In this document: piece after piece, positions 821 through 60,965 of the stretch
Layout of the letters: each line of letters starts with the position of its first letter
Position numbering within the stretch: position 1 is the first letter of the stretch
Origin: Octopus vulgaris
Taxonomy: Eukaryota
Assembly (NCBI GenBank): GCA_951406725.2
Contig: OX597836.1
Span: 2,542,001-2,606,000 of the forward strand
DNA: 64,000 bases
Direction: 5' to 3'
Translations under genes and position numbers: made by a program
Notes under the pieces: model-generated
Database searches by the model: none
The model's input: the letters and a program-made list of their open reading frames with translations, nothing else
Told to the model about the DNA's origin: nothing

Positions 821-1520
821 CACGTGTGGGACGAGTCGGTTTATCAGCTGAGTCTATCGTCAATATTGTCACGCCTCCTTCCTTCAAACGGGAAGGAAGA
901 GCTATTTTCATCATCCTTGTGGCTATGGCGAAAGAATGTATCTGGTGGACGCGTCTGAAAGGATTGGAGACAAACACTTTCCTCTCTGGTCAATCTCTCA
1001 TCAACTTCTTCAAGTACCACTTGAAAAGGAAAGTGAGAGTAGAGAGGTAAGTTTTGTCTAGCGAATGTTTTAAAAAAAGATGGGTGAATGTAGCAAGAAT
1101 GGCACGTATGAATGACGAAGCCACCTTGAGCATGATCCTATGAACCCAGAAATCGAAAACAGAGAGTTGCTTATTTGCAAAAAAAAAAAAAAAAGAAATA
1201 TAAAATGTGACTGCATTGACCGAGGTTACCGTGGTCTTTTCCGTAGGCTTTTCTTTCCACGGGTAAACCTCACCTGTCCTCCCCTTTACACTTCATATTG
1301 ACATTTCTGTGATAACGATCCCTATTGATCAATTTATTTTTTCCTCTCCCCCTTTTTTTTAACCCCCCTTTTTTGTCCTCTTTCTCTCCTTTTACGATCC
1401 CTTTTGATCGAAACTCCCCCTTCCTTTTTTTTTTTTTTTTTTAACCCTTCAAAAGAAAAGCTCTACCTTGTAATTTGTTCTATCTGTGTGCAGCCCTGTG
1501 TGGCTAATAAAGAAACATAT
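821..1520 (+). mobile_element. 5'-truncated Tx1/L1-clade non-LTR retrotransposon: ORF2 C-terminus (to 1143) plus 3' UTR
   Basis: Translation ...IFIILVAMAKECIWWTRLKG...FFKYHLKRKVRVER*VLSSECFKKRWVNV...LSMIL* has one premature stop (1048-1050) and the AKxxIWxxR ... FxxxW pattern of Tx1-like ORF2 ends. The pyrimidine-rich UTR ends in AATAAAGAAA. Confidence 0.75.
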
Positions 1521-11740: not shown

Positions 11741-11970
11741 AGGCGGCGAGCTGGCAGAAACGTTGGCACGCCGGGCGAAATGCGTAGCTGTATTTCGGAT
11801 GCCGTTATGTTCTGAGTTCAAATACCGTCGTGGTCGACTTTGCCTTTCATCCTTTTGGCGTCGATTAAATAAGTACCAGTTAATGACTGGGGTCGATGTA
11901 ATTGACTTAATTTGTCTGTCCTCGTTTGTCCCCTCTGTGTTATACCCCTTGTGGGTAATAAAGAAACAGG
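11741..11970 (+). mobile_element. Full-length SINE family 1 with Tx1-like tail A, flanked by 10-bp TSD TATTTCTTCC
   Basis: A-box-like TGGCAGAAACGTT, B-box GAGTTCAAAT, and a core GCCTTTCATCCTTT..GCGTCGAT resembling the Meta/Sauria-SINE domain. Direct repeats at 11725-11734 and 11971-11980. Confidence 0.9.
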
Positions 11971-16790: not shown

Positions 16791-16796
16791 ATATAT

Positions 16797-17190
16797 ATTC
16801 TTTCTTACTCTAGGCACAAGGCCGGAGATTTTGGGGGAGGGGGCAGTCGATTAGATCGACTCCAGTACGCAGCTGGTACTTAATTTATTGACCCGGAAAG
16901 GATGAAAGATAAAGTCGACCTCGGTGGAATTTGAACTCAGAGCGTAACGGCAAACGAAATACATATTTCTTTACTACATACAAGTGGCTAAACACAGAGA
17001 GGACAAACAAGGACAGACATACGGATTAAGTCGATTATATCGATCTCAGTGCGTAACTGGTACTTATTTAATTGACCCCGAAAGGATGAAAGGCAAAGTC
17101 GACCTCGGCGGAATTTGAACTCAGAACGTAGCGGCAGACGAAATACCGCTAAGCATTTCGCCAGGTGTGCTAACGTTTCTGCCAGCTCGC
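16797..17190 (-). mobile_element. Nested SINE family 1 dimer: head + body + tail A, then GTATTTC + body + tail B
   Basis: GTATTTC on the minus strand at 17146-17140 and 16962-16956. The second unit lacks the head upstream of GTATTTC. Confidence 0.9.
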
Positions 17191-48570: not shown

Positions 48571-48960
48571 CACGTTAGCGCGCTGGCGAAAGTTCTTAGT
48601 GGTATTTCGTCTGCCGCTACGTTCTGATTTCAAATTCCGCCAAGGTTGACTCTGCCTTTCATTTTTTCGGGGTCGATAAATTAAGCACCAGTTACACACT
48701 GGGGGTCTATGTAATCGACTTAATCCGTTTGTCTGTACTTGTTTGTCCCCTCTATGTTTAGCCCCTTGTGAGTAGTAAAGAAACAGAAATAGATATTTCG
48801 TCCATCTTTGCGGTCTGAGTTCAAATTCCACCCAAGATGATTTTGCCTCACATCCTTTCGGTGTTTATAAAGTTCGTACCAGTAATACATTGGGGTGTAT
48901 GTAATATTTCATCCCACTCTCCCAAAATTTCAGGTATTGTGTCTACAGTAGAAAGGATTA
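48571..48960 (+). mobile_element. Nested SINE family 1 dimer (younger body + tail A inside an older tail-B copy)
   Basis: GTATTTCGT at 48602 and ATATTTCGT at 48793. The downstream body is visibly more diverged. Confidence 0.85.
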
Positions 48961-49068
48961 TACGAGAGCTGCATGAAAAATGTCGAGCCTTGATGTCTTG
49001 TACCTTCATCAGAAGTCTTGCCCATTTTTTTTTTTTTTAGGCTCAACACTTTTCATACACCCCTCGTA
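48961..49068. mobile_element. Mariner-type MITE with TA target duplication
   Basis: Left end TACGAGAGCTGCATGAAAAATGTCGAGCCT versus reverse complement of right end TACGAGGGGTGTATGAAAAGTGTTGAGCCT. Confidence 0.85.
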
Positions 49069-52617: not shown

Positions 52618-53164
52618 GTATATGTAAATATATGTATACATATGTATATACATATATATATATACACATGCACACATACATATATACAATATATATAAAA
52701 TATGACATAAAAAGAAAGCCAATAAGATTTAATAAGTAGTACCGTGTAATCGTTTTACCCCTCGGCGCGAACCATTTTCTCTGCCGTGACAGGATGCCGC
52801 ATTAATGCGAAAATTGGTGGGGAGTCCTTGCAGAACAACAACTACAACAACAACCGCAGCAACAACAACAGCAACGAAATAATGTAACAATAAGAGCAGC
52901 AACAACAATATCAACGACATCGTTAACCACAACAACAGGAACAAAAACACTTCCAATGCGGAGAAACTGAAACCAACTCAACAGAAAAGGCAAGTAACAA
53001 TAAACAACAACAACAACAAAAGGCACAAAAATTTTTAAACCAAAAAACCCCACAGAGATCGGCAATTACAGCAAAGAGAAGAACCTTTAACAAAATGACG
53101 ACATCCTTACAAACATTTTCTGTCGCAGAGACCGGTCCGTGGTCGTTTGTTTGGCAGATATATT

Positions 53165-53880
53165 TGTTTCAAATTTAGGCACAGAGCCAGCAACTTCAGA
53201 GGAAGGGACTAATATACGATCCTAGGGCTCGTATATTATATATTTCATCCTCATCCTAACTGCAACACCGAAAAGATGAAGGTCAAAGTCGACCTCGGTG
53301 GGATTTGAACTCAAAGCGTAAATACAGAAGAAATGCAGCTAATATTTTTGCCCGGCATAATAACGATTCTACCAGCTCGATGGCTTCTAGTATTTATCAA
53401 TATCGATTTCAAATTTTAGCACAAAGCCAGCAAGTTCTGAAGAAAAGATTCGTCGATTACATCGACCCCCATTTCTCAACTTGTACTTATTTCATATACG
53501 AAATGGCTCTAAGCATTTTGCCAAGTGCGGTAACATTTCAGCTAGCTGGATGCCTTCAAATTAATAGAAATGTTAGTAATTTTTTCCCTCAAATTATCTT
53601 CTGTACTTTTCTAAGATGTACCTACACGTTGAATAATGCAGTGTAGTCTTAAATACTTCCAACAATGCTGGATGTTTATGGAAGGAATATTTAAACAAGT
53701 TTTACATAGATCTAAACTTCGATTGCTCACATAACGTCAAACCGTGAAACGTCGGCAGGATAAGAAACAAACGATGAAGGTTCTCCGAGTGATTTGAACT
53801 CCGAGCGTAAAAATGTAGAAGATATACCGAAGGTATTTTTTTATTAACTCTTTAACTGTTCTTCCATTCCATTGCCTAAA
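53165..53880 (-). mobile_element. Cluster of diverged SINE family 1 copies and fragments
   Basis: AAAGTCGACCTCGGTGGGATTTGAACTC at about 53285, tail B at 53165 and 53405, ATTTGAACTC at about 53792. Confidence 0.7.
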
Positions 53881-54502
53881 ATGCTGCGAATTTACTTCAT
53901 AGATTCTGCCCTTTAAGCATGAAAACTAAAGTTCCCCTGAACGTAAATTGTCGAAACAAATCGCGCATAACATTTTGTGCAACACCTTTACTAATCAACA
54001 AATTGATGTTTAAAAACCCATGGGTATTTAGATGAATTACATAACCCCCATATCGACTGAATCAGTAGTTTTGTACCTATGTTACGATGGTGGATTTTCA
54101 GAATGGTTTGGTTGTCGTAGGAAACGAGTGTTGTACTTAGTCACGGGTTTCACATCGTTCTGTGAAATACTACAGAGATCGCTTTTTGTGTTTGATTTTG
54201 AATGTTTGATAGAATAAGTACAAGTAAATAATGAGAGTGAAGGTTGCCTGGATGTGAAATCTCTAATCACAGAGAGGAGGGACACACACTGCAAATTATT
54301 TCTGCCTGAAGCTCTAAAGATTCTGTTAATTCAGAGCTAATGCAACAACAATCGCACGAACAAAATTAGCGGGAAAAGAAAGATATTAGCCATAGGGGCT
54401 TAGCGCAGACAACAAATGCTAAAACTAACAAAAATAAAACAATACAAATGTAAAAAAGAAAGACAACAGCACAAGAACGACAACAATATTAAAACAAGGC
54501 AA

Positions 54503-55448
54503 GGTAGCGAGCTGGCAGAATCATTAGCACGCCGGGCGAAATGCTTAGCGGTATTTCGTCTGCGTTACGTTGTGAGTTCAAATTCCGCTGAGGTCGACTT
54601 TGCGTTTCATTCTTTCGGGGTCGATAAATTAAGTACCAGTTACGCACTGGGGTCGATGTAATCGACTTAATACCTATGTCTGTTCTTGTTGTACCCTCTG
54701 TGTTTTGCCCCTTGTGGGTAATAAAGAAATAGGTATTTCGGGCGTCCTTACGTTGTGAGTTCAAATTCCGCCGAGGTCGACTTTGCCTTTCATCCTTTCA
54801 GGGTCGATTAAATAAGTACCAGTTACGCATTGGGGTCGATATAATCGACTTAAATCCGTTTGTCTGTCCTCGTTTGTCCTCTCTGTGTTTAGCCCCTTGT
54901 GGGTAGTAAAGAAATAAGTATTTCGTCTGCGTTACGTTGTGAGTTCAAATTCCGCTGAGGTCGACTTTGCGTTTCATCCTTTCGGGGTCGATAAATTAAG
55001 TACCAGTTACGCACTGGGGTCGATGTAATCGATTTAATACCTATGTCTGTCCTTGTTGTACCCTCTGTGTTTTGCCCCTTGTGGGTAATAAAGAAATAGG
55101 TATTTCGGGCGTCCTTACGTTCTGAGTTCAAATTCCGCCGAGGTCGACTTTGCCTTTCATCCTTTCGGGGTCAATAAATTAAGTACCAGTTACGCACTGG
55201 GGTCGATGTAATCGACTTAATCCGTTTGTCTGTCCTTGTTTGTCCTCTCTGAGTTTAGCCCATTGTGGGTAGTAAAGACATAGGTATTTCTGTCATCCTT
55301 ACTTTTTGAGTTCAAATTCCGCCGAGGTCGACTTTACTTCTCATCTTTTCGGGGTTGATAAAATAAGTACAAGTGAAACATAGGGTTGAAGTAATCGACT
55401 TAAACCTGCCTCGAAATTACTGGCCTTGTGCCGAAATTTGAAAGCAAT
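54503..55448 (+). mobile_element. Nested tandem SINE array: head + 4 x (body + tail A) + older body + tail B
   Basis: GTATTTC unit starts at 54551, 54733, 54918, 55100 and 55284 (periods 182, 185, 182, 184). Confidence 0.95.
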
Positions 55449-56154
55449 ATTACAACAACATAACTGTAAGAACCCAATCAAAACTACAATGAAGCACCAC
55501 TAACAACAATAACACAAACAACATGAACTCAATGACAGTAAGAACAGTAGCAACGGAAAGGTAAGAACACATTTGCAACAGGGCAACAAACACAACAACA
55601 TCAATAAGACAAAAGATATCATAGCGACAACAAGGCTGCAACAGAATAGCTATAATGAAGAATAAAAAAACAAAATAGCAACACGACTGCAACACAATAG
55701 CAACGACAATACAACAAACACAATAGCATTAGCAAGACCCATTAGCAACATTAAGAGAGCACGAGTGATGCAAACACAATGCAAACGATCTTGGTGAATG
55801 TACTGCAGCGATTGTAACTTTGCTGGGACTCATATTCAGAAAGTATATCGATATATTATAAATAACAATTTGGCTTCGAACAGTTTGATAATCAAGCGAC
55901 ATCAACTACATCAAGTAACCCATTTCCTTTTCTTTCCTGGTGATCAAAACTGATCGAAATAAGTAAAACTAGTAAAACGAAATACAGCGACATAGTTAAG
56001 ACATTGATTAGTAAAAGGGATTCTTCTCTTCGGTACTTGTTCTGGGTGGTTCGATTCCACTGAAGCCTATATTGCCGTTCATCCCTTCGAGGGCCAATAA
56101 CAAATGTTAACCCTCATGTCCTTCCACGCAGTTCAGGGCATCTTTTTAAAATGT

Positions 56155-60558: not shown

Positions 60559-60965
60559 GGGCAGTGAGGTGGCAGAAACGTTAGCACGCCGGGCGAAATG
60601 CTTAGCGGTATTTTGTCTGCCGTTTCCTTCTGAGTTCAAATTCCGTCGAGGTCGACTTTGCCTTTCATCCTTTCGGGGTCGATTAAATAAGTACCAGTTA
60701 CGCACTGGGGTCGATATAATCGACTTAATCCGTTTGTCTGTCCTTCTTTGTCCTCCCTGTGTTTAACCCATTGTTGGTAGTAAAGAAATAGGTATTTTGT
60801 CTGCCTTTACGTTCTGAGTTCAAATTCCGCCGTGGTCGACTTTGCCTTTCATCTTTAGGGGTCGAAAAAATCATGTATCTGTTACGCACTGGGGTCGATG
60901 TAATTGACTTAATTTCTTTGCTTGTCCTCTCGATGTTTGGCCCCCTGTGGGCAATAAAGAAATAT
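60559..60965 (+). mobile_element. Nested SINE family 1 dimer (two tail-A units)
   Basis: GTATTTTGTCTGCC at both 60608 and 60792. Confidence 0.9.

Follow-up and report, generated by a model that had tools for sequence, protein, structure and literature searches.

The array at positions 54,503 to 55,448 raises the question of how a short repeated element can come to consist of a single head followed by several body and tail units, the last of which ends in a different tail. Within the window, the whole stretch of 64,000 nucleotides that was analysed, the preliminary description had reported four loci of this kind, and had attributed them to the insertion of a young variant at a fixed position inside older members of its own family. 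The common architecture is as outlined there: each locus has one head, followed by units of 182–184 bp, made of a body and a tail indicated as tail A.

The repeated sequence is a short interspersed element (SINE) by two descriptions. The monomer, about 233 bp long, stays below 1 kb and exceeds 100 copies: 209 interspersed bodies were counted in 864 kb of unselected DNA, and 83,903 exact tail-A ends are present in the 2.8-Gb genome, while the reversed control gave 1 match. Its 3' end is shared with a LINE (34/42 positions identical to a Tx1-like LINE end), and target-site duplications are seen. Two motifs, placed by eye against the consensus of such boxes, are taken here as A-box-like (TGGCAGAATC) and B-box-like. 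ARAGORN finds 0 tRNA genes in the element and Rfam gives only a chance match at E=4; the focal array contains no long open reading frame, and tail A folds no better than its shuffled versions. Three octopus SINEs, OK, OR1 and OR2, were reportedly described by Ohshima and Okada in 1994. They are tRNA-derived SINEs of octopus, and the present family may be one of them.

The loci of the window are composed as follows.

54484..54497, plus strand: left copy of the 14-bp duplication of the focal array, 13/14 identical to 55445-55458
54501..54549, plus strand: SINE head with the A-box-like motif, the 5' arm of a predicted hairpin and its 4-nt loop
54550..54731, plus strand: unit 1, target GGTATTTC, body with the B-box-like motif and tail A; 178/182 identical to unit 3
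54732..54915, plus strand: unit 2, body and tail A, with a private start variant, GGTATTTCGGGCGTCC, common to unit 4; 172/183 identical to unit 4
54916..55098, plus strand: unit 3, body and tail A
55099..55282, plus strand: unit 4, body and tail A, with start variant GGTATTTCGGGCGTCC as in unit 2
55283..55450, plus strand: unit 5, older body and tail C; 97-100 of 118-119 body positions agree with units 1-4, the tail is another one
55445..55458, plus strand: right copy of the focal duplication, overlapping the end of tail C
16791..17190, minus strand: head, tail-A unit and tail-B1 unit, flanked by a 17-bp duplication (16/17)
48571..48962, plus strand: 5'-truncated head, tail-A unit and old tail-B2 unit
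60560..60965, plus strand: head, tail-A unit (GGTAGT variant) and GGGCAAT-variant tail-A unit, both units starting with GGTATTTTGTCTGCC
11742..11970, plus strand: tail-A monomer at a target-like site in non-SINE DNA, left copy GATATTTCTTCC, right copy GGTATTTCTTCC

At three loci the last unit does carry another tail, as had been described; the single "tail B" proposed for them stands for three tails, the locus at 16.8 kb ending in B1, that at 48.9 kb in B2 and that at 55.4 kb in C. The focal array is itself mosaic: its units 1 and 3 (178/182) and its units 2 and 4 (172/183) are paired in a higher-order period of 367 bp, all other pairs being identical at 160–162 of about 182 positions. Its unit 5 is likely the original target copy, and the 14-bp duplication around the whole array is likely the trace of the original insertion of this old tail-C copy. 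Broken and rearranged pieces of the SINE, including two tail-C-like ends, are also found at 53160-53495 of the window, on the minus strand.

The generality of the junction was evaluated over the whole genome, where 42,441 of the 83,903 exact tail-A ends run into GTATTTYRB (0 in the controls). It had been claimed that every tail-A end rejoins the element at GTATTTC, and this is too strong. In the unselected DNA (the window plus 80 stretches, 864 kb in all) 67 tail-A ends are present. The site accounts for 26 of them, and another register of the SINE for 7, of which 2 are in fact at the site, followed by a small deletion; 7 are at GGTA-like positions in non-SINE DNA, 12 in TA repeats and 15 in other sequences. 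Because of this split, the junction is better defined as dominant than as universal. The window itself holds two exceptions: the end at 60964, which belongs to the GGGCAAT-variant unit, is followed by a TA/CA repeat, and that at 11970 by non-SINE DNA. Junction letters vary as well, reading ATA then TGTATTTC at 16964 and ATA then AGTATTTC at 54916, with an extra GAAATA at 48787. Tail-A ends exceed the level of 20% of flanks within one repeat type, used as a criterion in PMC4494074.

The preference for SINE copies goes beyond what a short motif can account for: 28 of the 30 tail-A ends located on GGTATTT 7-mers are inside a SINE, a count in which junctions of one array are not independent, while only 48 of 207 such 7-mers are in SINEs. 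Off-target tail-A copies, followed by GGTA and then A, C or G, amount to 5,713; among 40 such loci examined, 32 have a head and 19 a clear duplication.

The class of target also tracks the tail variant. In unselected DNA, 0/11 GGGCAAT copies are at the site, compared with 12/19 GGGTAGT copies (p=6e-4); in a larger set, which includes selected loci, the figures are 7/52 and 111/204. Variants were assigned to the site by a motif call, which overlooks part of the junctions located there. GGGCAAT copies land in TA or ATT repeats, at AAGA sites and at a second head site, AGAAAC. The latter, at about position 18-20 of the head, is used by GGGCAAT and GGGCAGT tails, whose end, AAAGAAATAAGAAA, overlaps it (loci L081, L004/L005, L024, L113, L158, L164, L176).

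Some further cases were noted. Antisense copies are found at the palindromic mirror of the head site (L328) and at GGTAC on the reverse strand of the SINE body (L373, L383, L392). Five off-target tail-A copies (L013, L015, L017, L024, L377) are inside another repeat family, reading GGTACTGGCA or GGCATCAGCCAC. A different repeat, whose end reads GAAAAGCTCTAC...CCCCTTGTG, is followed by GGGTATTTCCACGAG in non-SINE DNA (L211, L213 and position 23454758 of C16 in G000). At L188:1370-1525 tail A follows a different upstream sequence at the same site, which suggests other passengers.

Direct evidence for insertion comes from loci where two heads are preserved. A full insertion at the head site is expected to generate, in this order, old head, duplication, new head, body, tail A, duplication and old body. 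Exact left junctions of this type were searched by three patterns, giving 496, 89 and 41 matches, 626 in total, with 0 in the controls. The first 30 loci of each pattern (90) were read, and 28, 24 and 23 of them (75) were scored by a script, in which the first three letters of the duplication were free to mismatch. A duplication of at least 10 bp is present in 20, 14 and 10 loci, respectively (44 of the 75 scored); these duplications, 10–19 bp long, begin with GGTATTTC. At many double-head loci (L115, L122 and L140, for example) letters private to the locus are found on both sides of the insert. By a loose call, the left context is a head or a tail A in 37 of the 44; that of L134 at least belongs to non-SINE DNA. 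Comparison of the inserted body with the one behind it was feasible at 45 of the 90 loci: relative to a consensus which leans to tail A, the insert is the closer of the two in 35 and the more distant in 8 (94.7% vs. 87.9%). Inserts truncated at the 5' end and carrying the same duplication also occur (L302).

Insertion at the head site into existing copies is near certain. The central proposal of the preliminary description, that a young tail-A variant inserts site-specifically into older relatives, is supported by these duplications, by the older terminal units and by the absence of any sign of a single dimeric B1 master, both considered below. In a search for empty alleles, none was found at the focal array or at L121. 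Contigs from four runs break at the focal array: both flanks enter the SINE in X1, X4 and X9, and the number of units is unreadable. At L121 contigs of X4, X7 and X9 enter the new head, X1 being uninformative; the filled allele is common to these three runs (organisms B, C and D), so that the insertion is not recent or polymorphic among them. An intron or introner origin, considered because units run from GT to AG and contain a pyrimidine tract, was dropped: full-length headed inserts with duplications of 10–19 bp explain the ends.

The possible source of the enzyme was sought through the tail, which resembles the 3' end of a Tx1-like LINE. One relative is in the window itself:

821..1515, plus strand: 3' fragment of a Tx1-like LINE in (TATC)n, 34/42 identical to tail A

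Some copies of this family have an open frame of 1,149 residues, with RVT_1 and zf-RVT domains; its ORF2 matches Xenopus Tx1 at E=1e-43 and human L1 ORF2p at E=1e-19, values which come from separate databases. The family is abundant and young: a first look gave 19,673 candidates, and all 150 scored were 100% identical to a 75-residue query (L221-L250). Ends are readable at 26 of 30 loci; all begin with ATATCT or ATCTAT, 24 enter a microsatellite and 0/26 are at GGTATTTC.

No LINE at GGTATTTC was found by five patterns and local searches, which could miss one, as the LINE tail had to be guessed. Patterns based on the tail retrieved only SINE variants, deletions and chance matches: for one of them 19 of 20 loci were SINEs and 1 was another sequence with tail A, and a further one gave 9 matches, known from the pattern alone. 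A pattern made of head, target and non-body sequence gave 52 matches, and no LINE was recognised among the 30 that were read. In a tblastn search of the retrieved loci with ORF2, the Tx1-like ends were located in (TATC)n, in (ATT)n or in poly-A. The LINE at 821-1515 is a relative of the tail donor; as no LINE was found at GGTATTTC by these searches, and no end of the TATC family is there, it is a candidate partner at most. At L034:1630-3110 a SINE head joins, at a variant of the target, a Tx1-like fragment in inverted orientation, which shares 38-52% identity with the TATC family; no matching right end was found.

The target, GGTATTTC, directly follows the 4-nt loop of the hairpin predicted at this place (z=-1.4 for a fold of 101 nt). 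The first base of the target and its partner in the stem vary together (T-G or T-A in 291 cases, G-C in 58, crossed in 8), which reflects the shared descent of one variant and not many events. Heads with CGTATTT account for 13/59 tail-A monomers, 12/626 left junctions and 1/100 units following a tail; their scarcity at junctions fits avoidance of the variant, or just its youth. A C at target position 3 is kept in the right copy in 6/10 cases, which is neutral as to RNA pairing, because the pairing primer is target DNA. The first base of the target had also been considered as a sign of overwriting by RNA; this argument was dropped, as CpG decay explains it, and the A>G asymmetry of duplication copies can likewise be CpG decay in the left copy.

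A fixed site, duplications around the inserts, invaded copies that are older and a Tx1-like tail are the observations to be accounted for. The reading we prefer, with a probability of roughly 0.65 for the mechanism as a whole, is that the tail-A SINE inserts at GGTATTTC in its older relatives, likely by target-primed reverse transcription with a borrowed LINE enzyme of the Tx1 type, and likely helped by a read-through RNA. The enzyme would be a Tx1 ORF2, nicking before GGTA. A copy within an array would be transcribed past tail A into the next GGUAUUUCG: since the polymerase already passes GGTATTTC in the head, it would pass it again behind the tail. The read-through RNA may then pair with the nicked SINE head and set the junction, and each insertion would constitute a new source homing to the same site. 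The single head could be explained if the cDNA anneals to the head already present, or if a 65-bp repeat collapses later, the head being mostly replaced. Longer arrays would be generated by further insertion, local duplication of units and retroposition of whole multimers.

More tentatively, and with rather less confidence than in the mechanism as a whole, the SINE may be described as self-homing. The read-through RNA would be a heritable guide to its own site; other 3' neighbours would lead to TA repeats or to the second head site, and the head variant at the first base, which keeps the stem, would escape. If this is true, every insertion into a family member makes a new source aimed at the same site.

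The head deserves separate consideration, because the preliminary description had assumed that the A box of the host is re-used. This does not hold as a rule, since the heads of single-head arrays are mostly young-looking: in B1-ended arrays they resemble those of tail-A monomers and not those of B1 monomers (identity to the consensus 0.910, 0.913 and 0.856, respectively; p=0.009 for the comparison with B1 monomers). In 6 arrays ended by B2 or C, head identity climbs from 5' to 3' (0.80, 0.82, 0.88). An old head upstream is retained, as seen by eye, in only 2 of the 62 headed arrays, so that the step of head collapse, itself conjectural, has to carry most arrays. The old head with the duplication, and the new head with the start of the body, form a 65-bp direct repeat, and head-plus-duplication repeats of 64–65 bp are expanded to 2–3 copies at four places. 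These tandem arrays are located at L286/L287, at L297-L299 and, in G000, at C11:19231493-19231654 and C20:48572628-48572724.

Among the alternatives, a serious one is that a Tx1 endonuclease alone reads GGTATTTC and its surroundings, possibly recognising the imperfect palindrome CGAAATGC-loop-GTATTTCG, the SINE being passive and the tail variants having used different Tx1 families. We consider this a real possibility, somewhat short of an even chance. Target choice by non-LTR elements is described in PMC4494074 as set mainly by the endonuclease. In agreement with this, among the 19 clear off-target duplications GGTA is in both copies, hence part of the target DNA, in 16; target variants are retained in the right copy; several Tx1-like families with related tails end in different repeats; and the site begins exactly past the hairpin loop. 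In the remaining 3 off-target cases, in contrast, G, GG or GGTA is present in the right copy only, as it is, by eye, at L025, L051, L151 and the 11.7-kb locus of the window; no LINE was found at the site, and the marked preference for SINEs among GGTATTT 7-mers would require a long recognition sequence. The dependence of target choice on the tail variant suggests pairing of a read-through RNA with the target, and may just as well result from a succession of LINE partners. On balance a GGTA-nicking enzyme combined with pairing of the read-through RNA is favoured, an endonuclease acting alone, with several Tx1 partners, being nearly as good.

That a few dimeric or multimeric masters gave rise to most arrays by retroposition, the targeted event being rare and old, is unlikely, and was evaluated by the age and descent of the units. 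From unselected and junction-enriched DNA 76 arrays were collected, 62 with two units, 8 with three, 2 with four and 4 with five. Divergence was scored only at positions where all four class consensuses agree. In the 31 arrays not ending in tail A, divergence is higher in the last unit than in the first, as had been anticipated from two loci of the window: 0.248 vs. 0.128 at CpG and 0.080 vs. 0.045 at non-CpG positions (p<=1e-4), about a twofold difference, and the last unit is similar to monomers of its own class. The difference holds for B1-ended arrays as well (non-CpG 14 vs. 2, p=0.001), and is contrary to what copies of a master should show. No age difference is seen in the 36 tail-A-ended arrays (p=0.17 and 0.31).

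The existence of one ancestral dimeric master had been indicated beforehand as an outcome which would contradict insertion. Pooled non-A arrays do give a weak signal of co-descent (Mantel r=0.18, p=0.03); first and last units show none in B1-ended (r=0.02, n=17) or A-ended (r=-0.15, n=36) arrays. Units neither co-descended nor of the same age are not those of a dimeric SINE with an Alu-like master. At least four kinds of terminal tail, and the 626 double-head matches, point to many independent events. In favour of masters, the heads of B1-ended arrays look young, B1 is in excess behind tail A (20 B1, 2 B2 and 5 C, vs. 14, 8 and 16 behind heads), and L120 and L139 contain two near-identical inserted units. 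Moreover, five loci in non-SINE DNA (L254, L263, L267, L024, L130) are headless, starting within tail A and having B1 as their last tail, as may be expected of 5'-truncated multimer retrocopies, deletion being also possible; some multimers thus appear to have moved whole.

It is improbable that dimers are born during reverse transcription, SINE RNA being copied as far as GGTATTTC, followed by a microhomology switch to the 3' end of a tail-A RNA. Such a switch would yield a single young head and a fixed junction, and duplications around whole arrays are indeed often clean; it demands, however, units of the same age, while the observed ages differ, and it cannot produce double-head loci with internal duplications. 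Furthermore, in 22 two-unit arrays not ending in tail A, first and last units share letters of the duplication above permuted pairs (p=0.001), with a full match in 2/22; no excess is found in 25 two-unit tail-A-ended arrays (p=0.35).

Tethering of enzymes by RNA polymerase III factors at tRNA genes is known for Ty3 and TRE5. A similar tethering on the A and B boxes of the SINE, with nicking of the nearest GGTA, would account for a site located between the A-box-like and B-box-like motifs, as placed by eye, and for SINE sites being favoured over other identical 7-mers. We regard it as a shade less probable still: old, decayed heads are also struck, and off-target copies use the same GGTA away from SINEs.

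Growth of the arrays by repeated insertion, as first suggested, is only part of the picture: insertion is real, and is accompanied by local duplication and by headless, 5'-truncated multimers. Of 60 adjacent tail-A pairs, 11 are at least 97% identical, vs. 0.4% of random pairs; all 11 are in arrays of 3–5 units, and 0/30 two-unit pairs reach this level. The features of SINE-derived satellites (sSat), short units with several middle monomers and homogeneity within the locus, are present in some arrays of 4–5 units (L104, L176), and 62 of the 76 arrays have two units. Local duplication still contributes to long arrays; as their origin, it is refuted by the double-head loci. At L098:4645-5259 and its flanks a tandem repeat that includes a portion of the SINE body, with about eight partial matches, is invaded by a two-unit tail-A array. 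That the arrays are SINE-derived satellites, produced by local slippage or unequal exchange only, is the least credible explanation: the near-identical pairs and the 367-bp period of the focal array agree with it, and such satellites are described in reptiles and bivalves (PMC10702118 and PMC11481361), but it explains neither a tail switch within an array nor a junction that recurs at unlinked loci, tens of thousands of them, and leaves the two-unit pairs without the expected identity.

Targeted insertion as described here works like that of SINEU-3/Tx1-Mar of crocodilians (Kojima 2015, PMC4494074); the element is neither a single dimeric SINE nor merely a SINE-derived satellite. According to that report, 313 of 347 copies of the crocodilian element are in Mariner-N4_AMi, a specificity ascribed to Tx1 LINEs, and its tandem copies, in a family of about 1,600, enclose a target-site duplication and were interpreted as insertions that followed one another. 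Both elements thus have one preferred site in an abundant repeat, and both form tandem copies. They differ in the target, an unrelated DNA transposon for SINEU-3 and the family itself here, where each insert provides a new target, heads probably collapse to one and at least 42,441 junctions are present.

The Xenopus precedent cited in the preliminary description, Tx1 (Tx1L) in Tx1D, fits, SINEU-3/Tx1-Mar being closer. Together with Keno, Kibi and Koshi, Tx1L displays the specificity for multicopy targets of the Tx1 clade, to which the specificity seen here is similar, and the LINE landing in (TATC)n behaves like Tx1 families that target microsatellites (PMC4494074). Tx1L, Keno, Kibi and Koshi are, in contrast, autonomous LINEs with a foreign target, while the present element is non-coding and targets itself.

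As for the role of RNA, PMC4494074 cites co-transcribed target RNA as strengthening R2 integration, and PMC11194090 reports that R2Bm needs no pairing between template and primer to start; joining of the 5' end by annealing is described for LINEs in PMC4245944. R2-type LINEs are similar in that an RNA matching the target can pair with the nicked primer; they differ in that, within these sources, no SINE has its own body as target.

Squamate sSat (PMC10702118) and the tandem SINEs of bivalves (PMC11481361) are similar in having units shorter than the SINE and one longer terminal unit; their homogeneity grows with the length of the array. Those arrays are ascribed mainly to duplication and unequal exchange, while here the seed is a targeted insertion into an older copy with another tail, and 62 of 76 arrays have two units. 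No SINE targeting its own family was found in the open literature that was searched. A word search of the text of a 2026 octopus repeat annotation (PMC13282606) retrieves neither "target" nor "nested".

SINEs usually travel as dispersed passengers; in the present case one branch makes its own family the landing site, at tens of thousands of loci. Such self-targeting would spare host sequence, overwrite the heads of older relatives and give rise to tandem arrays. The passage from interspersed repeat to satellite, a link which PMC10702118 calls poorly evidenced, can be followed here by counting, and the arrays provide a large natural data set in which endonuclease and RNA-target pairing can be compared as the basis of the specificity of Tx1. 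In genomes of this kind, repeat annotation and age estimates would wrongly take such arrays for dimer families or for insertions of a single age.
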